Source: a virus | Taxonomy: Duplodnaviria > Caudoviricetes | IMG/VR virus record: IMGVR_UViG_3300037423_000689 | Coordinates: 1-35,603 of that record | Length of the DNA stretch: 35,603 nucleotides | Strand: one strand, 5' to 3' | In this document: in pieces, positions 2,470-35,255 of the stretch | How the letters are laid out: every line of letters begins with the position of its first letter | How positions within the stretch are numbered: the stretch's first letter is position 1 | Notes under the pieces: generated by a model | Databases searched by the model: none | What the model was told of the DNA's origin: nothing | The model's input: only the letters and a program-made list of their open reading frames with translations | Position numbers and translations under genes: made by a program

Positions 2470-3708
2470 ATGGGCATTTGGGCTAGGCTGTTCGGCCGAG
2501 AGGCCAAGAAGGTCACGTATAGCGCAGAATTCGACTCCTGGTTTGCAAGCAAGGCGACGAAATCAGGCGCATCGGTCGATTGGGACACGGCGCTAGACGT
2601 CACAACTGTGCTTGCTTGCGTTCGCGCCGTAGCTGATGGCGTTGCTCAGGTGCCGCTGCAGATCATGAAAGAGACTGACGGCGGGCACGGAAGTGTGCCG
2701 GCGCCTGAACATCCTCTTTATCCGGTGCTTTTTCGTAAGCCAAACGACTGGCAGACCAGTTTCGGCATGCGTGAGACTATGATTTTCCATCTCATGCTAA
2801 CCGGAAATGCCTTTTTTCTTAAGGTTATGGTCCGCGGCAAGGTCAAGGGGCTTCTACCCCTTGAGCCTGGCAATGTTTCCATAATCAGGAACGATGACTA
2901 TTCGCTTACATACCACGTCACGACTGTAAACGGTCAGTCAATGACTGTGCCGCAGGAGTTGGTGTGGCACGTGCGCGGCCCGTCGTGGAATACGTGGCTC
3001 GGAATGGACGCCACGCGGCGCGCTCGAGAGGCAATCGGCCTCGCGATGGCCACTGAAGCGACCCAGGGCGAGCTTCATGCCAACGGCATGCAAATGTCCG
3101 GCGTGCTTTCGAGCGACCAGAAGATCGATCCTGAAAAATACAAGCAGCTTCAGGCGTGGATTGCCGCCCAAGTAGGTGGTGCAAACAAGCACAAGCCGCT
3201 CGTCATCGATTCCGGCCTGGAGTGGTCTCCAAGGTCGATGACCGGCGTTGATGCGCAGCATCTTGAGACCAGAAAGCACCAGATTGTTGAAATCTGTAGC
3301 GCCTTCAAGGTCTTTCCGCAGATGGTTGGCTTCTCCGACAAGACGTCGACCTTTGCCAGCGCTGAGGCATTCTTTGATGCTCATATAAAGCATACGCTTT
3401 TGCCATGGTGGGAGCGCATCGAGGCGTCGATCAACTGCGATTTGCTTGGCGACGATTTCGACAACGGTTACTGCGCTAAATTCGACTCGTGGGCACTTGA
3501 GCGCGGCGCGACCAAGGACCGCTCAGAGTACTTCACCAAGGCTCTCGGATCCGGTGGCTCGCCGGCATGGATGACGCAAGACGAAGTGCGCGCCAAGGAG
3601 GGTCTAAACCCGATGGGCGGCGACGCTTCACAGCTTCCGAAGCCAACAAATGTGGCGCCCGCAGGCGGCGACAATGGCGGCAAGCCGCCGAAGGGCAACA
3701 ATCAATGA
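2470..3708 (+). CDS. Portal protein, HK97 family
   Basis: 412 aa after terL with V.ACV..IA..VA.VP, KPNDWQT, LTGNAF, HVRG and C-terminal MTQDEVRAKEGL.P motifs. Confidence 0.95.
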   Translation: MGIWARLFGREAKKVTYSAEFDSWFASKATKSGASVDWDTALDVTTVLACVRAVADGVAQVPLQIMKETDGGHGSVPAPEHPLYPVLFRKPNDWQTSFGMRETMIFHLMLTGNAFFLKVMVRGKVKGLLPLEPGNVSIIRNDDYSLTYHVTTVNGQSMTVPQELVWHVRGPSWNTWLGMDATRRAREAIGLAMATEATQGELHANGMQMSGVLSSDQKIDPEKYKQLQAWIAAQVGGANKHKPLVIDSGLEWSPRSMTGVDAQHLETRKHQIVEICSAFKVFPQMVGFSDKTSTFASAEAFFDAHIKHTLLPWWERIEASINCDLLGDDFDNGYCAKFDSWALERGATKDRSEYFTKALGSGGSPAWMTQDEVRAKEGLNPMGGDASQLPKPTNVAPAGGDNGGKPPKGNNQ

Positions 3709-4403
3709 CGATTGAACGCATGTCCGTATCGCTAGGCGAGGTAAAACTTGCTGGCGCAGACGGCGATATGACTTTTTCCGGCTACGGCGCGGTTTTTGGA
3801 AACGTCGACTCCTATGGCGATGTGATCGCCAAGGGCGCATTCAAGAAAACGCTTGCGGACGCCAAAAAGAGCGGCATTTGGCCGGCTATGCTGTCGCAGC
3901 ACGGCGGCATGTTCGGCGAGGACTGCACGCCTATCGGCGTCTGGACCGAGATGCGAGAGGACGATGTTGGCCTTTACGTTGAGGGCAAGCTTGCCAACAC
4001 GGAAAAGGGCAAAGAGGCTTATGAGCTCCTGAAGATGACGCCGCGACCAGCCTATAGCGGCTTGTCGATCGGCTTTCGGGCGGTTGATTGGGCCATGCAG
4101 ACGAAGCCTGAAGAGCCTCGCCGCACGCTCAACGCTGTCGACCTTCTGGAGGTTAGCCTGGTGACGTTCCCGGCTAACACAAAGGCTCGCATAACCAGCG
4201 TCAAGAACGAATTCAATCCGCGAATTGTCGAAGACGGCCTGCGAGAAGCAGGCTTGTCGCGGTCGGATAGCGTGAAAGCTGTCGCGGTCTTCAAAAGCAT
4301 GCTGCTTCGCGACGAAGCAGAGCCGGGAACTGCTCCTCGTGACGAGGATGGGTCGGCAGAACTGCGCTCGCTTGCCGAACGCATTCGGGCGCTCGCCGCA
4401 TAA
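3705..4403 (+). CDS. Prohead protease, HK97 family
   Basis: FSGYGAVFGNVDSYGD, QH (catalytic His region), GLSIGF (catalytic Ser) and LLEVSLVTFPAN. Start set at the ATGA overlap with the portal stop (3705). Confidence 0.94.
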   Translation: MTIERMSVSLGEVKLAGADGDMTFSGYGAVFGNVDSYGDVIAKGAFKKTLADAKKSGIWPAMLSQHGGMFGEDCTPIGVWTEMREDDVGLYVEGKLANTEKGKEAYELLKMTPRPAYSGLSIGFRAVDWAMQTKPEEPRRTLNAVDLLEVSLVTFPANTKARITSVKNEFNPRIVEDGLREAGLSRSDSVKAVAVFKSMLLRDEAEPGTAPRDEDGSAELRSLAERIRALAA

Positions 4404-4444
4404 CGCGGCAGCCTGTCAACAATCCAAATTCACAAGGAAATATC

Positions 4445-5734
4445 ATGTCTGAGAAGACTGCCATTGAGCAGGTCATGACGGCTTTTGAGGAATTCAAGGC
4501 CACCAATGATGCCGCGCTCGCCGAAATCAAGAAGAAGGGTGTTGCTGACCCGGTCGTGACCGAGAAGCTCAGCAAGATCGAAACCGAACTGCAGAAGTTC
4601 GAAGACGCCAATCAGAAGGCGACCGCCGCTCTGCTGGAGGCCAAGAAGGCCGCCGACGAAGAGAAGAAGCACGTTGACGAGATCGAAGAGAAGCTCGCCA
4701 AGCTTGAGCTCCGCGGCGGTTCGCCGGCCGACAAGGCTTCCGAGATGAAGAAGCGCCACGAGTCGTGGGCGCGCGGCGTTGTTTCCGCCAACATCAACGG
4801 CGTTGCCAATCTGACCGCTGATCAGCAGAAGCTGTTCAAGGAAGTCGAGGCCGAATATAAGGCCATGTCGGTCGGCAACGACACGACTGGTGGTTATCTG
4901 GCCCCGATGGAGTACGTTCGCGAGATCATCAAGAGCGTCACGGAAATCAGCCCGGTTCGTTCGCTCGTTCGCGTTCGTTCCACCGCTTCCAAGGCCATCC
5001 TGATCCCGAAGCGTACCGGCCAGTTTGCCGCTCAGTGGGTTGCCGAGCAGGGCACTCGCGCCGAGACGGACGGCCTGCGTTACGGCATGTGGGAAATCCC
5101 GACCCACGAGATGTATGCCCTGATCGATATCAGCGAGCAGAACCTCGAGGACTCGGCGTTCAGCATGGAGGCCGAGATTAGCGGCGAAGCCACCGAGCAG
5201 TTCGCTGTTGCCGAAGGCGCCGCAGTTGTTTCGGGCAACGGCATCGGCAAGCCGGAAGGCTGGATGACCGCTGCCGGCGTTGCGGAGACCGTTTCGGGTA
5301 CCGCTGCGACGATCGCTGACTCGGACGGCCAGGCCAACGGTCTGCTTTCGCTGAAGTACGGCATCAAGACGGCTTACACCCGCAATGCTTCGTGGGCGCT
5401 GAACCGCAGCACGCTCGCTTCGGTGCGCAAGCTGAAGGACGCGCAGAAGAACTACATCTGGATGCCTGGCATTGCGCTCGGCCGCCCGAACACCATTGAT
5501 GGCGACCCCTATGTCGAGGTGCCGGATATGCCGTCCGAGGGCGCGAACGCCTATCCGGTCGCTTACGGCGACTTCGCCAAGGCGTACACGCTGGTTGACC
5601 GCGTTCAGATGTCGATGCTGCGCGACCCGTACACGCAGGCGACTGCGGGTAACATCCGCTTCATCTTCCGCAAGCGTCTTGGCGGCCAGGTCACTCTGGC
5701 GGAAGCCATCCGCAAGCTGAAGTGCTCGGTCTAA
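4445..5734 (+). CDS. Major capsid protein, HK97 fold with N-terminal coiled-coil delta/scaffold domain
   Basis: 429 aa with a charged helical N-terminus, GGYLAP, AQWVAE, G.G.GKP.G, LKD...YIW and YGDF motifs. Strongly biased codon usage and an AAGGA RBS. Confidence 0.96.
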   Translation: MSEKTAIEQVMTAFEEFKATNDAALAEIKKKGVADPVVTEKLSKIETELQKFEDANQKATAALLEAKKAADEEKKHVDEIEEKLAKLELRGGSPADKASEMKKRHESWARGVVSANINGVANLTADQQKLFKEVEAEYKAMSVGNDTTGGYLAPMEYVREIIKSVTEISPVRSLVRVRSTASKAILIPKRTGQFAAQWVAEQGTRAETDGLRYGMWEIPTHEMYALIDISEQNLEDSAFSMEAEISGEATEQFAVAEGAAVVSGNGIGKPEGWMTAAGVAETVSGTAATIADSDGQANGLLSLKYGIKTAYTRNASWALNRSTLASVRKLKDAQKNYIWMPGIALGRPNTIDGDPYVEVPDMPSEGANAYPVAYGDFAKAYTLVDRVQMSMLRDPYTQATAGNIRFIFRKRLGGQVTLAEAIRKLKCSV

Positions 5735-18409: not shown

Positions 18410-20767
18410 ATGACCATCTATAACACCGGCACGGTTTCCGTGACGAATGGCAATGCTGTGGTTACGGGCAGCGGCACCGCTTGGGCTGTGTCGCTCGTTA
18501 CGGGCGGCATGTTCTCGAGCGCTGGCGTGTCCGTGCCTATCCTGTCGGTCGACAGCGACACCTCGCTTACGCTGGCTTATGCCTGGCCGGGCACGACTGC
18601 AGCCGGCGCCGTCTATGCGATCGCGCGCGAGAACAGCGAGGCGGCGGATATTGTCGACCTGAACGACAAGCTTAGCCGCGTACTCGTGAACCTGTCGCTC
18701 GCCGGCATTACGCCAGATGCATCGGGAACCATTGCTGAGCGCGACGCGCTTACGCTTGCCGTTGGCGACAAGGGCTTTCTGTTCTTGCATGCCGAGATAG
18801 GCGTGGCGTTCGCCTTCTACCGATGGAACGGCACCGCTTGGGATGGGCCTTTTGCGGTTGCTAATGCTGTTGCTACGGGAGGCGTTAGCAGCATCGTAGC
18901 CGGCAGCAATGTCACCATCGACAACACCAACCCGGCTATTCCTGTTATCAGTGCCACTAGTCCACTGCCAACTCCGGTCGCAAGCACCTTTCTAAAGCGC
19001 AACGCTGGCAACACGGCCTACGACGCCATCACCGCCATCGACTCCACCGATCTCTCATACACACAGACGGGAACGGGAGGCGGCGTGTTCCCGTTGTTTA
19101 CCATCCTTAAGGAGCGCATTCGCGCAGCGCGCTTCGGCGCTGACCCTTCTGCCTCCGCTGCCGTTAACAGGGCCGCCATAAACAACGCAGTTAACGCGGC
19201 CGGCGCTAATGGTGCTCTTATTGAATTGCTATCTGGCCAGTTTGATGTGGACAGTACTGTTATCCCGCTTGCCGCGAACTGCACGATTGCTGGTGAGGGT
19301 GAGGCGACCATCATCCGCACGACATCGGCAACGGCGAACATCTTCGACGTGGCCGCCGCCTTTGTTACCATCCGCGACATCCAGATGGCCGCTTCCGTTA
19401 CTAGATCGGGTGGGAACTTCGTCAATGTCGGGGCAGCAGCGCATCGATTTGAACTGCGCAATTTTCACATGGCAGCTCCCTTTCAGGGAATAGCTATAGT
19501 TAACGGCGTGTCGTCTCCTACCATCCGCGGGGGGAAGATATTCAACACGGTAGCGGCCACCGGAATACCTATCCGCATAGACGGTGGTCTTGACATAACG
19601 CTAGCGGATATTTGCACCGATGCTGCGGGCGGCTCTCAGCCGTTCGCCGGCATCTACATCGACAATGCCGGCGATGTCAGCATTGAGGATTGCCAACTCC
19701 TGCATGCCGGCCAGGCGCTTTATCTAAACCCTGGTGTGGGGCAGACAATCACCTCTGTTTTTGCCAACAACACCTTCTTCGACAACAGTACGCGCGGTCT
19801 CTATGGCAACGCGGCTGGTGGCGCTATCGCCCGCTGCATCTTCGATGAATGCTGGTTCTCCTCGTCCACAAACGAAGGTATCCGCTTGGCGACATCGGCG
19901 GGCGGCACGATCGACGGCATGGATTTCATCAATCCACATATCTTCCTCAATGGCGGAGGCGGCGCTTTCGTCAACGATAGCGGTGTGACCAACGTTTCTT
20001 TCATCAATCCGGCAGTCTGCCAGAACACTGGCGATGGCCTGAAATTCGCCTCGGGAGTCAATAAATACCGTATCATTGGCGGCAAGGTCGGCGACGGGTA
20101 TGGTCTGACCGGCAACACCGGCTATGGCATCAATCTTGTTGGAACGAGCGACAATTTCGAGATTTCCAGCGTCAACCTGTCTGGCAATACCAGTGGGCCG
20201 ATCAATACGACGCTGGCACCGAGCCCAACCGCCATCCTGCGCTCGAACATCGGCGTTCCCCGCATCGTCCCGGATATGCAGATCGCGTCTATCAAGAGCG
20301 CAAAGACAGCCTTGACGAACAGCATCACAACGGAACAGGCAATCTTCACTGCGGCAAATGATACGCTGACGCTGAAGGCGGCCACCACTTATCGCTTCAG
20401 GGCGCGCATTGGGCTGAACACAGGGGCGACGTCACACTCGACCGCGTTTAGCCTGGGTGGCACTGCGACGTTTACCGCATTGGGCTATAGTGCTTCAACG
20501 ACATCGGCGGCACTTGGCGTTATATCCACTCCGCAAATGGTTAGTGGAAGCGGCGCTGGAGCCACAACGCTCTGTGCGGCTTCAACGGCCACGCGTACAG
20601 ACATCCTGATAGAGGGTGAGATGCGCATAAACGCCGCGGGAACGATCATCCCGCAGATATCGTTCTCGGCTGGACCGACCGGTACATGCGAAGTGGACTT
20701 CGACAGCTTCTTCGAAATCTGGGGTGTCGGGCCAAACTCAGCTGATGCCGTGGGTGACTGGTCTTAA
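18410..20767 (+). CDS. Tailspike/tail fibre with pectin-lyase-like beta-helix (putative polysaccharide depolymerase)
   Basis: N-terminal virion anchor (YNTGTVSVTNG..VTGSGTAW), then FGA.......N..AI..A..A and TI.GEG..T.I entry motifs, followed by N/G/I-rich beta-helix rungs and a beta-sandwich-like C-terminus. Confidence 0.85.
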   Translation: MTIYNTGTVSVTNGNAVVTGSGTAWAVSLVTGGMFSSAGVSVPILSVDSDTSLTLAYAWPGTTAAGAVYAIARENSEAADIVDLNDKLSRVLVNLSLAGITPDASGTIAERDALTLAVGDKGFLFLHAEIGVAFAFYRWNGTAWDGPFAVANAVATGGVSSIVAGSNVTIDNTNPAIPVISATSPLPTPVASTFLKRNAGNTAYDAITAIDSTDLSYTQTGTGGGVFPLFTILKERIRAARFGADPSASAAVNRAAINNAVNAAGANGALIELLSGQFDVDSTVIPLAANCTIAGEGEATIIRTTSATANIFDVAAAFVTIRDIQMAASVTRSGGNFVNVGAAAHRFELRNFHMAAPFQGIAIVNGVSSPTIRGGKIFNTVAATGIPIRIDGGLDITLADICTDAAGGSQPFAGIYIDNAGDVSIEDCQLLHAGQALYLNPGVGQTITSVFANNTFFDNSTRGLYGNAAGGAIARCIFDECWFSSSTNEGIRLATSAGGTIDGMDFINPHIFLNGGGGAFVNDSGVTNVSFINPAVCQNTGDGLKFASGVNKYRIIGGKVGDGYGLTGNTGYGINLVGTSDNFEISSVNLSGNTSGPINTTLAPSPTAILRSNIGVPRIVPDMQIASIKSAKTALTNSITTEQAIFTAANDTLTLKAATTYRFRARIGLNTGATSHSTAFSLGGTATFTALGYSASTTSAALGVISTPQMVSGSGAGATTLCAASTATRTDILIEGEMRINAAGTIIPQISFSAGPTGTCEVDFDSFFEIWGVGPNSADAVGDWS

Positions 20768-21579
20768 GGAATGCAAAGAAGGTCAGACACGCAATGGTGA
20801 CTGATTAGATTGGTGTGGATGAAGTGCAGCAATTCAGTCTTCGTATTGATGTGCTTCACCACACCAGCATCGTAAAATTGGATATCTGAAAACAGCGTTT
20901 GAAGGCATTCTAGGAACGCCCGCGGATTCTGGTTTCCGTATGCCAGCAGTGTGAAGCTGTTGAACTCCATGAATACCAGTGGCTGACGTGACTTGATGGT
21001 AGCCATTCCTCCTTCCAATACGCCCCTTTCATGCCCCTCGACATCTATCTTTATGAAGTCGAGTTTTTGTGGAGCGTATTGGGGTGCGATATCGTCAAGT
21101 CTTTGAACGGATACTGTGTGCGTAGTCTCGCCTAGCGACCCATCAATGTTGAGGTGGCTTGCTGTGGCGGACTGCGGATTGTCCGAAAAAGGCAACTCTC
21201 CCTCTGAAGACCCAATAGCTACGTTCACCACCTTGACGTTCTTAAGGTTATTCGCCGCCACTGTGCCCTTCAGGTACCGGAAGGCAACCGGAGATGGCTC
21301 GAAGCTCGTTACCGTGCCATTGGGCGCATGTTTGGCAAGCATGGCGGTAGTGAGACCGATATTCGCCCCGACATCAAAAATAGTAGCATCGCTGCTTAGG
21401 TTCTCTGAAACTACACGTTCCAAAAATGCGTTTTCGTTCGCCTGGCCCTGCAGGTGCTCGAAGTAACCATCAGTAGGGCTTCCGCAAATCTGCACATCAT
21501 GCCCAGCAATGGTAATTGTCTTAGTCGGAAGCGCCTCTTCCGCATCGGGCTGATTCAAAAATCGCTTTAACAAACCCAA
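20764..21579 (-). CDS. FkbM-family SAM-dependent methyltransferase (antisense moron)
   Basis: IFDVGANIG, SFEPSP, V.RLDD and DFIKIDVEG.E..VL.G motifs. TTG start after a GGGAGG RBS. Confidence 0.92.
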   Translation of the reverse strand: MGLLKRFLNQPDAEEALPTKTITIAGHDVQICGSPTDGYFEHLQGQANENAFLERVVSENLSSDATIFDVGANIGLTTAMLAKHAPNGTVTSFEPSPVAFRYLKGTVAANNLKNVKVVNVAIGSSEGELPFSDNPQSATASHLNIDGSLGETTHTVSVQRLDDIAPQYAPQKLDFIKIDVEGHERGVLEGGMATIKSRQPLVFMEFNSFTLLAYGNQNPRAFLECLQTLFSDIQFYDAGVVKHINTKTELLHFIHTNLISHHCVSDLLCIP

Positions 21580-23696: not shown

Positions 23697-23700
23697 TTTC

Positions 23701-23737
23701 AAAGCCCCGTTGCCCTGACCGGCAGCGGGGCTTTTTT
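23701..23737 (+). terminator. Rho-independent terminator ending the late operon
   Basis: AAAGCCCCGTTGCC-ctgacc-GGCAGCGGGGC followed by TTTTTT. Confidence 0.88.
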
Positions 23738-23750
23738 GCGTTCTGCAAAC

Positions 23751-23786
23751 TTGATCCTGTAGGCGTTTTCGCCTATATAATATAAT
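23751..23786 (+). promoter_or_regulatory. Sigma70-like promoter with embedded operator, upstream of HNH
   Basis: TTGATC-N17-TATATA, with TATAAT just downstream; operator TAGGCGTTTTCGCCTA at 23760-23775. Confidence 0.65.
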
Positions 23787-23800
23787 GGAGGATCCCAACC

Positions 23801-24454
23801 GTGCAGACAAGATGTTGCAAAAAATGTCAAACCACAAAGCCGATCGAGGACTTCGGAAAAGATAGCCGACGCGACGATGGGGTTAGCCTTACATGCAAGG
23901 CTTGCGCCAGAGAAAAGCATAGAAACTGGAAAGCCAAAAACCCAGGCTACGCCGCGGCTTGGCGGAAGGCCAACCCAGAAAAACTAGCAAAGCAAAAATC
24001 CGATTGGGCCGCCAGGAATACCGAAAAAGTGCGAGGATGGGTGAATGATTGGCTTTCGAGAAACCGCCAGTGGAAGATAGATTACGAGGCCGCTCGCAGG
24101 GCCGCACCTCGCGCCAAAGTGGACGCGTCTATCTCATCGAGCATCAATCAATGCCTTAAGAATGGATCCAAGTCCGGCAGGTCGTGGGAGTCATTGGTCG
24201 GCTATACGATTGATGAACTCATGTCGCATTTGGAAAAGCAATTCTCGGATGGAATGACGTGGGGGAATTACGGCAAAAACGGATGGGAAATAGATCACAT
24301 AATACCAAAGTCAATCTTCAATTATGAAAGTCCAGAGCACATAGATTTCAAGCGTTGTTGGTCCCTTTCAAATCTGCAGCCGCTTTGGGCTGACGAGAAT
24401 AGAAAGAAATGGGCTACATTTGATGGCGGTTTTCAGCCATCGCTGGCGATTTAG
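23801..24454 (+). CDS. HNH endonuclease with N-terminal CxxC...CxxC
   Basis: CKKC...CKAC, WEIDHIIP and NLQPLW..EN.KK motifs; AT-richer; GGAGG RBS. Confidence 0.88.
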   Translation: MQTRCCKKCQTTKPIEDFGKDSRRDDGVSLTCKACAREKHRNWKAKNPGYAAAWRKANPEKLAKQKSDWAARNTEKVRGWVNDWLSRNRQWKIDYEAARRAAPRAKVDASISSSINQCLKNGSKSGRSWESLVGYTIDELMSHLEKQFSDGMTWGNYGKNGWEIDHIIPKSIFNYESPEHIDFKRCWSLSNLQPLWADENRKKWATFDGGFQPSLAI

Positions 24455-24502
24455 GCGGTTTCGCATATTCTGCTTGACTTGGTAGGCGAAAACGCCTATA
24501 GT
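24452..24502 (+). promoter_or_regulatory. Near-consensus sigma70 promoter with tandem operators driving the accessory operon
   Basis: TTGACT(24474)-N17-TATAGT(24497). Operators TAGGCGGTTTCGCATA (24452-24467) and TAGGCGAAAACGCCTA (24483-24498). Confidence 0.8.
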
Positions 24503-24564: not shown

Positions 24565-25266
24565 ATGCGCCGCATGCTTGCCGCAACCCTTTTGCTCGCC
24601 GGTACCGCGCTAAGCGCGTGCGCCGTTGATGGCGTCGTCACCAGCGGCGTCCAATCGCAAGTCAAACCAGCAGGATCCTCAGTTCGCATTGAGCTCGTCA
24701 ACGGACTTGGGTCGGGCGTCTATATCGGCAACGGCGTGATTATCACGGCGGCTCATGTGGTGGATAGTGCCATCCGTCCGGTTCTCGAGCGAGACGCAGA
24801 CGGCAAGGCTGCCGTGTTCGGCCCGCCGACCGTCAAGCTTGTCTCGGATCAAGGAGACAAGCAAGACGGCGAAGTCCTCTGGATCAACAAGGACTATGAC
24901 ATTGCCGCTGTGCGCCCGACCAACGAGCGGCGCTTCACGGCTGCCAACCTGGCTTGCCGCGAGCCGGCGTTGGGCGAGGCGCTGATGGCGGAAGGCAACC
25001 CGGTCGGCGTGCAGTTTATCCAGATGCATGGCTATGTGTCAGGCGAGCCGCGGCCTTTCTTGCCCAACTGGAAGTCTGGATTTGTCACCGACATGACCGT
25101 GATTTCGGGCATGAGCGGGGGCGGTATCTATGACGGTACGGGCGACGTTATCGGCATCACGGTCGGAGCATTTGACCCGCACAGCGCGCAGGGGCAGCCA
25201 GCGCAGGGCGGCATGGGCTTTGCCGTTCCGTCGAAGGTGGTCTGCGGCCTGCTTGGGAGGGCGTGA
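24565..25266 (+). CDS. Trypsin-like serine protease, predicted lipoprotein
   Basis: Lipobox LSA-C; TAAHVV (His), DYDIA (Asp), GMSGG (Ser). No PDZ domain. GGAGG RBS; start re-set to ATG 24565. Confidence 0.9.
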   Translation: MRRMLAATLLLAGTALSACAVDGVVTSGVQSQVKPAGSSVRIELVNGLGSGVYIGNGVIITAAHVVDSAIRPVLERDADGKAAVFGPPTVKLVSDQGDKQDGEVLWINKDYDIAAVRPTNERRFTAANLACREPALGEALMAEGNPVGVQFIQMHGYVSGEPRPFLPNWKSGFVTDMTVISGMSGGGIYDGTGDVIGITVGAFDPHSAQGQPAQGGMGFAVPSKVVCGLLGRA

Positions 25267-25457
25267 TGAAAACGCTATTGATCATGACGCTTACGTTGAA
25301 TGCACCGGGCTACTCATTCGATGTGCTTCGATACGAGGTGGCCAACGAGTACCGATGCCAATTGCAGGGCGCATCGTTGGCAAAGGACATCCTTTCCAAG
25401 ATTCCTGGCGTGGCTAGCATTCATTACGAATGCGTTGACAAAGGTTACGGCAAATGA
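25263..25457 (+). CDS. Small exported protein with two Cys
   Basis: MKTLLIMTL hydrophobic N-terminus; coupled to both neighbours. Confidence 0.6.
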   Translation: MMKTLLIMTLTLNAPGYSFDVLRYEVANEYRCQLQGASLAKDILSKIPGVASIHYECVDKGYGK

Positions 25458-25777
25458 GCAACGAAACGATTGATAGCAACAAGTCTGGATCGACAGGCGC
25501 CGGCTTAATCGCCGCTGGATACGCGATCGCTGCATTCCTGACGTTCGGATATGTGTTCAACGAGAACTATGTTGAGCCAACACCTGTAGTTGATTGCGGC
25601 GTTATGCCCAAAGTTATGAGCGGCGATTGGGACGCTTATTGGAACTGCAGGAAGTCCAATATTGAAGCGATAGGCTCGGGAACAACCAAATTCGACGCGG
25701 GGTTTCCTGCAGCCTATGCGGCAGTCTTGTGGCCGCTGTATTGGGGCGCCCACCTCGGAATCAAGGTGACGAAATGA
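25454..25777 (+). CDS. Two-TM membrane protein with a Cys-containing loop
   Basis: TM1 LIAAGYAIAAFLTFGYVF and TM2 AAYAAVLWPLYWG; ATGA overlaps. Confidence 0.7.
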   Translation: MSNETIDSNKSGSTGAGLIAAGYAIAAFLTFGYVFNENYVEPTPVVDCGVMPKVMSGDWDAYWNCRKSNIEAIGSGTTKFDAGFPAAYAAVLWPLYWGAHLGIKVTK

Positions 25778-26265
25778 CCCTCACCGCACGCCTGTTCATC
25801 GTCAACTTTGCCGGCGCCTGCCTTGCCGTATGGGCTTGGTGGAATGGTTCAATACAACAATTCGCAAGGGCTGACTCGTCGCATTTTGGCTTGTTCATCC
25901 TCGCTCTGTTCCTAGCTATCACGGCATCGGCATTCTTTCGCGCCAGAGAGATCGATAGGGCGGCAAGCGCAATCGACCTTAAGCGCGCCAGGATCCGCGC
26001 TGAGCATATCGGGACGGCTGTCGCAGCCATGTTCATGCTCGGCATCATCGGCAATGCCAAAGGACTTATCGCTGGCTTCGACGGCATCAGCGCTGGCTCG
26101 CTTATGACGGCCGAGGGCGGCGCCAAGTTCGCTGCGCAGGTTCTTGCCGGTATCAGTACGACATTTGGTGCAACCGTCATCGGCACGGCGCTTGCGCTGT
26201 GGACGACAGCTAACGCGCAGGCCATCAACACGCGGCTTTCGCTGCGCGAACTGGACGCCATCTGA
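25774..26265 (+). CDS. MotA/TolQ/ExbB proton-channel-like membrane protein
   Basis: Two N-terminal hydrophobic helices, then MLGIIGNAKGLIAGF and AGISTTFGATVIG, matching the LG.LGT..G.I..F and GI..AL..T..G hairpin of the family. Confidence 0.75.
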   Translation: MTLTARLFIVNFAGACLAVWAWWNGSIQQFARADSSHFGLFILALFLAITASAFFRAREIDRAASAIDLKRARIRAEHIGTAVAAMFMLGIIGNAKGLIAGFDGISAGSLMTAEGGAKFAAQVLAGISTTFGATVIGTALALWTTANAQAINTRLSLRELDAI

Positions 26266-26822
26266 TGGTCGGCCAGTTCAAATGGCTCTTTGCCTTTGTC
26301 GACATGCTCTTGTCGCTTGGTGCATTGCTTGCCGGCGCGCTCTATGCGGTGGCGCTCATGGCGCACCCGCCAGCCAAGGACAACCCTGAAGCTATGCCGC
26401 CTCCTGGCAACATAGCCGTGTTCGCGGCTTGGCCGCAGGGTAACATAGACGCTGATTTGTGGTTCAAGTCGCCTGACGACAACTTGCCGGTCGGCTACAG
26501 TCGCAAGGACGGAACAGTATGCGCTTTGCTGCGCGACGATCTCGGTACGACAAACGACAGCAGTCCGATTAACGCTGAGAACGTCTTTTGTCGCGCACTG
26601 CCGGCCGGAGAATACATCGCCAACGTCCACGCCTATTCAGTTCCAGCAGAGGGCGTAACGGTCCACGTAGAGATTGCCATTAACGGCAAGTTGCTGGTGT
26701 CGCGCAACATGGATCTGAAGCCGAAGCAGGAGCGCACCGTTGTGCGGTTCACGCTCGACGCGGCAGGCAATGTGACGGGCAGCAATGAGGTTTATGCGCC
26801 GCTGCGTTCGGCGAACAAGTAG
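26265..26822 (+). CDS. MotB/TolR/ExbD-like single-TM protein with a periplasmic YfaP/DUF2135-like beta domain
   Basis: N-terminal TM with Asp (AFVDML), then W....DADLW...P, L.RDD, N.EN and GEY..NVH.Y. TGATG-coupled to the MotA-like gene. Confidence 0.7.
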   Translation: MVGQFKWLFAFVDMLLSLGALLAGALYAVALMAHPPAKDNPEAMPPPGNIAVFAAWPQGNIDADLWFKSPDDNLPVGYSRKDGTVCALLRDDLGTTNDSSPINAENVFCRALPAGEYIANVHAYSVPAEGVTVHVEIAINGKLLVSRNMDLKPKQERTVVRFTLDAAGNVTGSNEVYAPLRSANK

Positions 26823-26831
26823 GAGGGGACC

Positions 26832-27065
26832 GTGAAGTGGGTGCTCATCATTACGTGGATTACGGTTGGCCACACCAATTTCGCAGGCAGCGGAATCGAG
26901 GTGACAGCCTGGCCGACGCTTGAGGAATGCTTTGCCGTAGGAACGGCAGCGCAGCAGAATTTTCAACGGCTTTACGAGGGCGGCAACTCCGCGAATTTCT
27001 CATGCATTCCGTCCACGGGTAAGGAGCCGACTTGTGGCGGCAGCAAGATGGGGCCGTGCAAATGA
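26832..27065 (+). CDS. Small exported Cys-rich protein
   Basis: GGAGG RBS; MKWVLII...TLEEC...SCIP...C...C. Confidence 0.6.
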   Translation: MKWVLIITWITVGHTNFAGSGIEVTAWPTLEECFAVGTAAQQNFQRLYEGGNSANFSCIPSTGKEPTCGGSKMGPCK

Positions 27066-27163
27066 CCTCCTTCGCATGGGCTTGCGCCGCATTCGCGGTG
27101 TTCCTCTTGGCGGCCTGCTCGTTCAGCGCCTTCGGCCTTTGGTGGATGGGAGAAGTGGAATGA
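27062..27163 (+). CDS. Small hydrophobic peptide (33 aa), not in the ORF track
   Basis: MTSFAWACAAFAVFLLAACSFSAFGLWWMGEVE, with ATGA overlaps at both ends. Confidence 0.5.
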   Translation: MTSFAWACAAFAVFLLAACSFSAFGLWWMGEVE

Positions 27164-27354
27164 AGTTTCCCGTTAGGTGGTTCTTCTATGTGCCGTGTGC
27201 AATCAATCTGGTGCCAGCAGGTTCCCTTGGTTCACATGCGGGGCGCGCGCTCGCCGACGGTGATTTTGCACGCTCGCTAGTCGTACTGTGTGCGGCATCC
27301 CTTTTCGCGGCGAACGCGGCTGCGTGCGGCTTTGTTGCGGGGCGCGAAGAATGA
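27160..27354 (+). CDS. Small membrane protein
   Basis: 64 aa hydrophobic ORF (MKFPVRWFF...), ATGA-coupled. Confidence 0.55.
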   Translation: MKFPVRWFFYVPCAINLVPAGSLGSHAGRALADGDFARSLVVLCAASLFAANAAACGFVAGREE

Positions 27355-27773
27355 CCATTGCATCAACCTGGCTCGCGCTTGCGCTCGCACTGTGTGCCTA
27401 CGCATGGTTCGCTTACCGCACGCCTTACGTGCTGCCTGCGCTCGTGCTTGCTGCCACGGCGGCCATGTGGGTGCCTAGCGGCACGCCGCGCCTTACGACG
27501 CCGCCGCAGGGCAAGTATCAGGTGCTTGGCGCCGACATCGTGGTCGATCAATACATTGACGCGCTGCTTAAGCCGGAAGGCCATCCAGCAATGCTCTACC
27601 GCCTGCCGTACAGCACGGCGCAAGCTAACGCGCTGCAGGCGGCCATGGACGGCGGCAACGGCGTCAAGGCCGAAGTCGGCACGGAAGGCGGCGTTGCTTA
27701 TGACGGCGACCCGCCTGTTTCTGGCGAGGAGAACAAGCAGGCTGAGCAGCCGCAACTGAACGTTGGAGGGTGA
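27351..27773 (+). CDS. Two-TM membrane protein with a soluble domain (P..YRLPY); possible third motor-associated component
   Basis: Two N-terminal TMs, G.P linker, LYRLPYS....AL..A motif and acidic C-terminus. Confidence 0.7.
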   Translation: MTIASTWLALALALCAYAWFAYRTPYVLPALVLAATAAMWVPSGTPRLTTPPQGKYQVLGADIVVDQYIDALLKPEGHPAMLYRLPYSTAQANALQAAMDGGNGVKAEVGTEGGVAYDGDPPVSGEENKQAEQPQLNVGG

Positions 27774-28167: not shown

Positions 28168-28361
28168 GTATCATTTCAAAGATGGAGACCTGGCACAGGT
28201 ACGCGCTCGCTTTCGTGTTCATCTTTGCCGCCATGCTATTCGACGTAGGTGGATATATCTCTCCGTTTCTTGTCTGCTCCGGAATCGCAGCCCTGTTTCT
28301 AATGATGGCGTTCGACCGCCACCTACAAAGGAATCTGCCCATTGACTCCCGCCACACCTAA
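28164..28361 (+). CDS. Small two-TM membrane protein
   Basis: 65 aa (MSIISKMETW...), hydrophobic hairpin. Confidence 0.55.
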   Translation: MSIISKMETWHRYALAFVFIFAAMLFDVGGYISPFLVCSGIAALFLMMAFDRHLQRNLPIDSRHT

Positions 28362-29631
28362 CGAAACGCTGCTTGCAACACATGCTGCGTATCTAGCCAA
28401 CAATGAAAACCAGACGGCAACCGCCAAGGCGCTCGGCGTATCGCGTGAGACAGTGCAGCGACACTTGCGGCAAGCTGCGGAGCGAGGGCTGATCGGCACC
28501 GAGCCGGTTATGCATGGATTTCGCATAAGCCAAGAAACCGCCGTCTATGACGGCGACGGCAATCTGCGCGCCGAGTTTATCCAGCAGAAGCCGGAACGCG
28601 GCGAAGTCTTTGAGATGCCTGCCGGCCAAAAGATCAAGGGCGTCAGCGCGCTTGTCGATCCGTATGGCCGCGAGATTATCAAGTGGATCAAGACTGACGC
28701 TGACCGCGAGGCGCAACTTGCCGTCATGCGCGCCGTTGTCGACGCGCTCAAGGAGGAAGTTCCGCGCATCGATCCCACTCCGGCGCCGGGATCCACAATT
28801 GGCGAATTGTTGAATCTCTACGCAGTTACCGACGCGCATTTCGGGATGCTGTCCTGGCGCGAGGAGACCGGCGCAGACTACGACCTGCCGATCGCCGAAA
28901 AGCTTCTGCTGGATTGGTTCGCGGCGGCAATCGACCTTGCGCCGCCTGCCGAGACGGCAATCTTTGCGCAGATTGGCGACCTTCTCCACTATGACGGCTT
29001 TGAGTCCAAGACACCAACGAGTGGCCATATCTTGGATGCGGACAGCCGCCTGCCGAAGGTTATCCGGGTCGTCATTCGCACGTTGCGGCGCGTCATCGCC
29101 ATGCTGCTCGAGAAGCACAAGTTTGTGCACGTCATCATGGCCGACGCCAACCACGACCCGGCAAGTGAGGCGTGGCTGCGCGAGATGTTCGCAGCGTTCT
29201 ATGACAACGAGCCGCGCGTGACTGTCGATAGCTCGGCGAGCACCTATTACGGCTACAAGCATGGCGACGTGTCGCTATTCGTCCATCACGGACACAAGCG
29301 CAAGATCGGCAACGTCGATACCGTGTTCGCGGGCAAGTTCCGCGAAATGTACGGCCAGACCAAATTCAGCTATGCGCACCTTGGCCACCTGCACAGCGAC
29401 GAGCTCAAGTCGACAAACCTGATGAAGGTCGAGCGGCACGAAACGCTTGCCGCGGCGGACGCCTATGCGGCCAACGGCGGGTGGCTGTCTGGCCGCTCCG
29501 CGAAGGTCATCACCTACAGCAAGAACCATGGCGAGGTTGCGCGGCTGACGCTCACACCTGGCATGGTTGGCGGATGGCGCACCGCAGCCAACGACAACGA
29601 GCCGAAGGAGATGATGCATGGGGTTGCTTGA
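28342..29631 (+). CDS. HTH-fused calcineurin-like metallophosphoesterase
   Basis: N-terminal HTH (NQTATAKALGVSRETVQRHL) and motifs D.H.G (TDAHFG), GD..H, ANHD, HHGH, GH.H. Confidence 0.85.
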   Translation: MTPATPNETLLATHAAYLANNENQTATAKALGVSRETVQRHLRQAAERGLIGTEPVMHGFRISQETAVYDGDGNLRAEFIQQKPERGEVFEMPAGQKIKGVSALVDPYGREIIKWIKTDADREAQLAVMRAVVDALKEEVPRIDPTPAPGSTIGELLNLYAVTDAHFGMLSWREETGADYDLPIAEKLLLDWFAAAIDLAPPAETAIFAQIGDLLHYDGFESKTPTSGHILDADSRLPKVIRVVIRTLRRVIAMLLEKHKFVHVIMADANHDPASEAWLREMFAAFYDNEPRVTVDSSASTYYGYKHGDVSLFVHHGHKRKIGNVDTVFAGKFREMYGQTKFSYAHLGHLHSDELKSTNLMKVERHETLAAADAYAANGGWLSGRSAKVITYSKNHGEVARLTLTPGMVGGWRTAANDNEPKEMMHGVA

Positions 29632-33485: not shown

Positions 33486-34124
33486 CTATACCCGTCGCGC
33501 GGCAATCTCACTCATCATTGCTTTATGCGCTTCAATGTCGGCCGCGGCAAGCCTGGCTGGTAGCTGTGCGGGCCGCGCTGGTAGAACAATGTCGTCGGCT
33601 GTCTGCGCAACTGCCTTGACAAGATCCAGCGCGCTTTGCCGCCCAATGAGCTCAGCGTATACGGCCGCAAGAAGCTCCGCGTCAAGCAGCGCGCCGTGCT
33701 TGGTGCGGCGGGTATTGTCGATGCCATAACGCCGGCAGAGCGCGTCGAGCGAGCATGGCGAGCCGGGGTGTTTGGCTCGAGCCATCGCCAGGCTGTCTAT
33801 AAAGGGATTGGGGAGAGGTTCGCCGAACGCCGCAGCAAGGAATCCAGCGTCAAACGACGCGTTATGCGCAACGATCTGGCTGTCCGCCAGGAAGTCTTTT
33901 AACGAGCCGGCAATTGCAGCAAACGGCGGCTTGTCGGCCAGGAATGCGTCCGTCAGGCCGTGAACGTCCGTAGCCTCCTGCGGCACAGGAATGCCGGGAT
34001 TGATGTAGGCGTGAAATGTGCGCCGCGGCGACAGGTCGATAATCTCGACGGCGCCGACTTCGACCAGGCGGTCGCGCTTGAAATCGAAGCCGGTTGTTTC
34101 CGTGTCTAGGACGACGTGGCGCAT
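33486..34124 (-). CDS. dnaQ: DNA polymerase III epsilon-like 3'-5' exonuclease
   Basis: ExoI LDTETTG, ExoII AHNASFD, SLDALC.RY.ID and ExoIII HGALLDA motifs. Confidence 0.93.
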   Translation of the reverse strand: MRHVVLDTETTGFDFKRDRLVEVGAVEIIDLSPRRTFHAYINPGIPVPQEATDVHGLTDAFLADKPPFAAIAGSLKDFLADSQIVAHNASFDAGFLAAAFGEPLPNPFIDSLAMARAKHPGSPCSLDALCRRYGIDNTRRTKHGALLDAELLAAVYAELIGRQSALDLVKAVAQTADDIVLPARPAQLPARLAAADIEAHKAMMSEIAARRV

Positions 34125-35189: not shown

Positions 35190-35255
35190 GTTTTAGGCTA
35201 AAGCGCCTATAGAGTCAACAGGAAAAATGCGAAACCGCCTAGGCGATAACGCCAT
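35190..35255 (-). promoter_or_regulatory. Leftward sigma70-like promoter with operator cluster
   Basis: Minus strand TTGACT(35218-35213)-N17-TAAAAC. Operators TAGGCTAAAGCGCCTA (35194-35209), AATGCGAAACCGCCTA (35226-35241) and TAGGCGATAACGCCAT (35240-35255). Confidence 0.72.

Follow-up and report, generated by a model that had tools for sequence, protein, structure and literature searches.

The window analyzed in this study, the whole of a 35,603-nucleotide stretch of viral DNA (35.6 kb; IMG/VR record IMGVR_UViG_3300037423_000689, 57% complete), carries three accessory genes, here called A, B, and C, which form a conserved unit that very probably has the architecture of a 5:2 ion-driven motor. 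In the motors MotAB, ExbBD, TolQR, and ZorAB, five A-type subunits surround two B-type helices, and ion flow at an aspartate (Asp) drives rotation. As to what the trio does, our leading and still tentative reading is a lytic-phase envelope motor that excludes rival phages; it ranks above envelope maintenance, a role in lysis, a decoy for host motors, and exclusion by lysogens, in that order. A preliminary description made from the sequence alone had drawn attention to A and B as a motor-like pair with C shortly downstream, and all of the motifs that it quoted were found in place when the sequence was re-read.

Gene A (25774-26265, plus strand) encodes a minimal subunit of the MotA/ExbB/TolQ/ZorA family, 163 aa in length, with the channel-hairpin motifs MLGIIGNAKGLIAGF and AGISTTFGATVIG. 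Taken alone, the window protein matched PF01618 with an E-value of 0.038, which falls short of the cut-off. A match at E ≤ 0.01 was obtained for 40 of 51 aligned A relatives, and a profile of A relatives matched the solved chains of ZorA (7e-8, the best), MotA (2e-7), TolQ (3e-7), PomA, and ExbB. These matches bear out the earlier assignment of A to the MotA/TolQ/ExbB type and identify it as a homolog of the 5:2 ion-motor subunit. Four hydrophobic segments (residues 1-19, 37-55, 82-100, and 123-141) point to a MotA-like topology without a large cytoplasmic domain, the loop between helices 2 and 3 being ~25 residues long. The median span from D34 to G93 was 55 and 52 residues in two phage sets vs. 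91 in chromosomes, and a C-terminal extension of at least 50 aa was seen in one of 231 A frames (52 aa). Among 102 A members, none matched PHROGs.

The stop codon of A (TGA) overlaps the start codon (ATG) of gene B at 26265. B (26265-26822, plus strand; 185 aa) has one transmembrane (TM) helix (14-32) with D13 in the motif AFVDML, a Pro-rich linker, and a predicted periplasmic, TerD-like beta-sandwich (49-174); the motifs DADLW, LLRDD, NAEN, and GEYIANVHAY follow the helix. D13, on which the preliminary description had built its case, was never substituted in three separate alignments (65/65, 53/53, and 189/195 with six gaps), and B is a homolog of the partner subunit of 5:2 ion motors. The B model (pLDDT 89) aligned with TerD over 131 residues (Z 9.6, rmsd 3.9) and with a second TerD structure at Z 9.0, the next unrelated fold scoring 6.3; Foldseek likewise returned TerD (E 3e-4, TM-score 0.47). 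The head is therefore predicted to adopt a TerD fold on the periplasmic side. Invariant residues of B are D62, D64, D91, D92, E105, N120, and T158. The Ca1 site of TerD is reported to comprise residues 40-42, 78-79, and 89 (PMC8779313), and D62/D64, D91/D92, and E105 parallel its 3+2+1 spacing as a pattern only, not as a residue-level alignment; the acidic head probably binds Ca2+. A YfaP/DUF2135-like head had been proposed at first. None of 53 B members matched PF09906 (DUF2135) at E ≤ 0.01, and DUF2135 occurs on 21% of the members of an ESM Atlas neighbor of B (score 0.84); that label is a lead only, TerD being the supported fold match. The ExbD families also gave no match among the 53 members. 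No sequence relatives of B were found in the PDB, where TerD too lacked a sequence-profile match, and a comparison of 102 B members with PHROGs gave 14 matches, which fall in two families without a name.

The third conserved member, C (27351-27773, plus strand; 140 aa), contains the motif PAMLYRLPY and was modeled (pLDDT 85) as two N-terminal helices, a small OB-like barrel (52-119), and a Pro-rich tail. Of the two TM segments first ascribed to it, the first exceeds the hydropathy threshold, and the second (helix 27-40) is seen in the model only. The best fold match of the barrel was eIF5A (Z 7.2, rmsd 2.6, 63 residues aligned), at a Z under the reliability level of the tool, which is 8; Foldseek of the C model gave no clear match, and no PDB sequence relatives of C were found. 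The tail has an F-x3-P motif and a lysine, K129, that is never substituted in the 189 of 220 aligned rows without a gap at this site. No fusion of C to a cell-wall enzyme was matched in proteins of 407-2000 aa, a weak test with 250-400 aa outside its range. C-terminal extensions of at least 50 aa were found in four of 231 C frames, all of them low-complexity tails of 67 aa. In comparisons with two relatives, dN/dS was ~0.30-0.35 for A, 0.11-0.26 for B, and 0.14-0.16 for C, which indicates purifying selection on all three genes.

The three genes travel together. Among 76 viral loci with B (window included), A was present in 76 and C in 74, counts that were made after profile iteration on those same loci; of the two loci without C, L043 ends right after B and L033 stops where its sister L032 has C. 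With virus-only profiles, A was found in 78 and C in 75 of 80 genome loci, the best 80 of 446 found. In a metagenome sample of 80 loci, 38 were too short, and both A and C were present in all 42 with room on either side, none of which had been used in the profiles. No other conserved neighbor was found in the 80 genome loci. The trio is thus a conserved unit to which C belongs, and the suspicion that C is a module member and that the genes co-occur elsewhere was upheld in viral, genome, and metagenome loci alike. The B family comprises at least 1,065 clusters at 50% identity (E ≤ 1e-30). Cultured phages with matches amount to 29 records including duplicates, all rhizobial, and A, B, and C were confirmed in each of the four that were checked, namely the temperate phage 16-3, the large phages P10VF and RHph_I1_18, and RHph_N3_19. 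Among uncultured carriers are contigs on which the trio neighbors genes for tail sheath and tube, for ribonucleotide reductase, or for endolysin and spanin. The idea of a phage-specific machine was not supported, as many bacteria have this trio as a free-standing operon on the chromosome. A quick, unrooted tree of 102 concatenated trios resolved large-phage, temperate alphaproteobacterial phage, and chromosomal groups, with eight changes of viral/genome label; lacking a root and built on a biased sample of genomes, it supports no claim on the direction of transfer. In the myovirus-like contig L054, and alike in L036 and L037, the trio (~3530-5020) stands in the tail region. Two copies of B were seen in the bacterial genomes G007, G010, G095, G272, G309, and G402, and L155 has two whole trios 7 kb apart. 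Distant A and B pairs in L296, L297, and L298, with a longer A and a third gene of 340-350 aa that does not match the C profile, are possibly a sister system.

By analogy with the known motors, five A subunits would surround two B helices, and ion flow via Asp13 would rotate the A ring relative to the B dimer. In Zorya, ZorB D26, the equivalent of Asp13, and the ZorA T147/S184 pair are needed, and D26N abolishes the system (PMC11946911). Phage A is nearly devoid of a cytoplasmic domain and B lacks a wall anchor of the OmpA type, so the membrane or the periplasm would be the site of output. C would serve as a TonB/TolA-like transducer, its Pro-rich, Lys-bearing tail docking on the acidic, probably Ca2+-binding head of B. 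We consider this role for C somewhat probable because of its operon position and near-obligate co-occurrence; the contact with B is one that we infer only. A reduced complex prediction (three A, two B, and C) gave a score of 0.02 and a mark of 0.32, and counts neither way. In a test of inter-chain covariation (220 paired loci, effective 146), the top B-C, A-B, and A-C scores did not exceed those of partner-swapped controls; the test was underpowered, since the expected A-B pair failed too.

Compared with Tol (TolQ-TolR-TolA) and Ton (ExbB-ExbD-TonB), the trio shares a channel hairpin in which N94 and T134 align to the two Thr-ring positions, a single-TM partner with the Asp, and an arrangement of three adjacent inner-membrane genes. 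Unlike them, A has four hydrophobic segments rather than three and a W at the TolQ P187 position, the head of B is TerD-like and not of the ExbD/TolR kind, and C combines two helices with an OB-like barrel, where TonB and TolA have a single SHLS helix, a long linker, and a C-domain. The conserved neighbors in the 80 genome loci did not include tolB, pal, or a TonB-dependent receptor, and all members tested against NCBIfam fell far under the cut-offs. Zorya ZorA-ZorB (PDB 8vvn, 8qyh, 8qyd) provides the top profile matches of A (E 7e-8 to 5e-6), and the two have in common the TM Asp and a link to phage biology. However, A lacks the cytoplasmic tail of ZorA (163 aa vs. 400-700), B lacks an OmpA-type peptidoglycan-binding domain, and the trio has no ZorC/D/E and is encoded by a phage, in an operon that is probably lytic; none of 14 B and C proteins matched PADLOC models. 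The MotA-MotB and PomA-PomB stators resemble the trio in the four-TM topology of A, the position of the GT motif (MotA T209), and the Asp in the B helix, but A is without their torque-generating cytoplasmic domain and B without their plug and OmpA-like domain. TerD itself (PDB 2qz7, 2kxt) shares the beta-sandwich (Z 9.6, 9.0) and the Ca1-like acidic pattern with the head of B, at 8-12% identity, whereas B is predicted to be membrane-anchored and periplasmic and there is no ter operon. By A and the Asp features, the trio falls in the MotA/TolQ/ExbB superfamily, and the features that define Tol, Ton, Zorya, and flagellar stators are absent from it. Among described systems, the closest oddity is the pairing of TolQ-like proteins with transpore-helix-vWA proteins, for which a pentamer was predicted that holds an Asp helix fused to a non-canonical periplasmic domain (PMC12204202). 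Both have an Asp helix with an odd periplasmic head; those pairs differ in having a vWA head and heterologous B pairs, whereas the trio has a TerD-like head, one B, and an obligate C, and is common in phages. In the scheme of PMC12505986, the trio would rank as a non-flagellar 'generic ion transporter', and it is not named in the part of that article available to us. No published description of the trio was found in literature searches judged by titles and abstract starts, in line with the initial view of it as an undescribed system.

The window contains, in order, terminase, portal, capsid, tail, endolysin, and Rz-like spanin genes, and then the accessory operon. Relatives that carry a name are proteins of Mesorhizobium and rhizobial phages. 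G001, which is a complete relative, has a repressor-like (CI-like) gene of the HTH_3 family (E 7e-14) and a weakly matched integrase-like gene (E 2e-4), and two further relatives are provirus records; we infer that the window phage is a temperate rhizobial siphophage. The trio operon is headed by a promoter-like site, TTGACT-17-TATAGT (24474-24502, plus strand), with a palindromic operator-like site, TAGGCG-N4-CGCCTA, between its -35 and -10 hexamers (24483-24498) and a second copy at 24452-24467. With up to two mismatches, this palindrome occurs 12 times in the window vs. 1.55 expected, the largest count in shuffled sequences being 5. A leftward promoter near 35218 has the same promoter-operator architecture, and in G001 the palindrome clusters on both flanks of the repressor-like gene, within promoter spacers. 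One regulator appears to control several operons, one of them late. The trio is likely silent in lysogens, because the operator in its promoter also flanks the CI-like repressor of the complete relative; for the window phage, we consider it likely from these sites that the operon is off in the lysogen and turned on by infection or induction. Its presence in the large phages P10VF and RHph_I1_18 likewise speaks for a lytic-phase role of the trio. The 16-3 copy is found at 22.6-24.5 kb, between the lysis genes and attP, in a region termed 'silent' (PMC10460002), a position consistent with an accessory role. Copies of the palindrome stand at 101-116 (before the terminase small subunit gene), 23760-23775 (before an HNH gene), 24452-24498 (accessory operon), and 35194-35255 (leftward promoter).

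Variation in the membrane core of A and B bears on what the motor might do. Alignment to the E. coli genes placed N94 of A at ExbB T148, TolQ T145, and MotA T209, and T134 at ExbB T181 and TolQ T178. Across 195 homologs, the first of these ring positions holds T 178 times and N 15 times, and the second T 173 times, S 19 times, and A three times. N at the first position was found in 12 of 60 viral vs. two of 76 genome sequences, and on the trio tree the site switches at least six times, every switch falling within the temperate clade; the nearest relatives of the window, 65% identical, have T. The GN of the window had initially been taken as a sign of altered ion use or of a dominant-negative decoy. 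Because T and N toggle among close rhizobial phages without any loss of Asp13, the Gly pattern, or the second Thr, N94 reads instead as a tolerated polar swap.

Among 17 temperate rhizobial loci, the pairwise identity of the A hairpin tracked that of the B helix (rho 0.87, partial 0.81), whereas the B helix did not track its own head (rho 0.14); the value for the B head and the C helices was 0.58. Linkage has a part in these figures, and the pairs behind them are non-independent. In P0008 the helix is 96% and the head 80% identical, and in P0013 the figures are 14% and 87%. Since the A hairpin follows the B helix and the latter does not follow its head, A and the B helix act as a matched pair that can be exchanged, the breakpoints falling at the B linker. 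At head identities of 0.55-0.75, core identity (A hairpin/B helix) was lowest in temperate rhizobial phages (0.40/0.29), against 0.59/0.63 in the chromosomal set (50 loci) and 0.67/0.67 in the large-phage set (30 loci); six rows had been dropped from the chromosomal set (five outside the main chromosomal group or duplicates within it, and one truncated).

With this timing and this variable core in mind, we suggest that the phage would make the motor early in lytic growth, act with it on the envelope of the infected cell, and keep further phages out. This lytic-phase exclusion leads the field, though we hold it with less than even confidence. Its least sure part, which we regard as slightly more doubtful still, is that co-infecting phages would be excluded by motors that a hypervariable A/B-helix core keeps allele-specific. 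Several observations weigh against exclusion. The number of promoters around the operon is that expected by chance (5 vs. 5.6), the operator pattern was derived from the window itself, and the window stops short of any repressor or integrase gene. In five relatives the palindrome vs. control counts were 14 vs. 6, 13 vs. 3, 2 vs. 1, 4 vs. 5, and 10 vs. 7, clearly above control in only two, and the palindrome was seen in the promoter upstream of the trio in seven of 33 other loci examined; the promoter-like site upstream of the 16-3 trio lacks the annotated C-operator spacing of that phage (ACAA-N4/6-TTGT), which was found neither near the 16-3 trio nor in the window. In the myovirus-like L036 and L037 the trio sits between the tail sheath and tail tube genes, i.e., amid late genes, and in L052 it follows endolysin and spanin. 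C has neither a TonB/TolA SHLS-type helix nor a long linker. The large-phage clade is without core hypervariability, and where the core is hypervariable, relaxed constraint could be the cause. The co-variation of the A hairpin and the B helix could likewise arise from linkage alone, as the two are neighbors in the DNA. Finally, chromosomal copies of the trio sit among housekeeping genes, and the ancestral job was therefore probably not phage exclusion.

That last observation leads to the closest competitor, which is possible and in our judgment less probable than exclusion: the phage trio could be an auxiliary copy of a host motor with a Tol-like job, acting on the periplasm or on an outer-membrane lipoprotein and keeping the cell intact and energized until lysis. 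Of 401 genomes sampled from the Alphaproteobacteria, the class to which G009 belongs, 55 have relatives of B, many of these genomes being of 1.3-2 Mb. In another 18 genome regions, most of which were chosen from small genomes, mreC, mreD, PBP2, RodA, glyQ, relA, and rnhA surround the trio. In nine of these 18 regions (L281-L285 and L290-L293; e.g., L292:7192-7983), C is followed by a gene for a predicted lipoprotein of 230-260 aa without a Pfam or PDB match, a possible outer-membrane target of the cellular motor; a lipoprotein-type protease heads the phage operon; and large phages have the trio near Hsp20 and peptide deformylase. However, the fourth-gene lipoprotein was not found in 240 other loci searched, and maintenance leaves the joint hypervariability of the core and the T/N toggling in temperate rhizobial phages unexplained.

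We consider it unlikely that the motor, or an ion leak through it, times lysis or disrupts the outer membrane. The trio does come right after the lysis genes of the window, 16-3, and X2_25, and in L052 its neighbors are endolysin and spanin, but in the window a terminator-like hairpin (23701-23734) and a separate promoter with its operator stand between the lysis genes and the trio, endolysin and Rz-like spanins are already present, and in other phages the trio is found among replication genes. Still less probable is a dominant-negative decoy, in which A (with its GN) or B would join and jam host Tol, Ton, Mot, or Zorya complexes. The N at the first Thr-ring position and the divergent core would suit such a decoy, as would the finding that loss of ring residues can cripple these motors, as in the ZorA T147A/S184A mutant (PMC11946911). 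Against it, the same source reports that single ZorA ring mutants retained activity against one phage (PMC11946911), the toggling described above occurs among relatives 65% identical with Asp13, T134/S, and the glycines kept, A and the B helix change as a matched pair, and the three genes remain together; the decoy reading of GN was accordingly rejected on the T/N toggle among close relatives and the conservation of key residues. A position downstream of the lysis cassette is usual for morons, and a lysogenic moron, with superinfection exclusion (a role that the preliminary description had entertained) expressed from the prophage, would fit the trio's own promoter there and the temperate relatives (the integrase-like gene of G001 and the provirus records), but it is the least probable reading, given the repressor-type operator between -35 and -10, common to repressor-flanking promoters, and the presence of the trio in large phages.

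The well-known 5:2 ion motors (Mot, Ton, Tol, and Zorya) are cellular machines. If the trio works as proposed here, phages build their own envelope machines driven by ion-motive force, and the smallest A subunits would represent a minimal motor. The family is large, has a distinct partner architecture, and occurs in temperate phages, large phages, and small-genome bacteria; neither B nor C has a name in Pfam, NCBIfam, or PADLOC. What the window contributes is the toggling between T and N, operator evidence that draws on a complete relative, and the mosaic nature of the core. A bolder and rather improbable extension is that the trio constitutes a fifth class of 5:2 motor, one that has three subunits and a TerD-like head that senses calcium, captured by phages more than once as a lytic envelope machine. 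In temperate rhizobial phages its swapped core would be a diversifying cassette for self/non-self specificity between competitors, which would make the trio a phage-side counterpart of Zorya. The trio is directly testable, since it is carried by cultured phages (16-3 p038/p040/p042 and P10VF 191-193) and bacteria (Azospirillum, Thiobacillus, and Mesorhizobium).

The remaining genes of the operon, all on the plus strand, are less constant. The first encodes a trypsin-like serine protease (24565-25266; Trypsin_2, E 8.7e-18, Pfam) with a lipoprotein-type signal (LSAC, by eye from the sequence). Of the 240 loci searched, 20 have close relatives of this gene in the vicinity of the trio, mostly in temperate rhizobial phages, of whose trio it is an associate and not a universal partner. 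Two small variable open reading frames (ORFs) between the protease and A (25263-25457 and 25454-25777) are filler without a family match, shifted or absent in relatives, and three more lie between B and C (26832-27065, 27062-27163, and 27160-27354), which abut in most relatives. An HNH/endonuclease VII-like gene (23699-24454) stands between the terminator-like hairpin and the operon promoter, and is preceded by a near copy of the operon promoter and operator (23750-23777 vs. 24473-24500); it may be an insertion that duplicated the site.

No RNA data sets carrying the window were listed; the 11 DNA runs are from soil or rhizosphere, eight of them marked as possible sources. Downstream of the trio, a gene with an HTH and a phosphoesterase ('DNA repair exonuclease') domain (28342-29631) shares its N-terminal 50 aa with a gene of locus L001 (6441-8345) that has another catalytic domain. 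Between the tail fiber and lysis genes, a methyltransferase-like gene (phrog_8156; 20764-21579, minus strand) occupies the position of immX in 16-3 and is a candidate moron. The leftward operon includes a gene for a DnaQ-like exonuclease subunit of DNA polymerase (33486-34124, minus strand).

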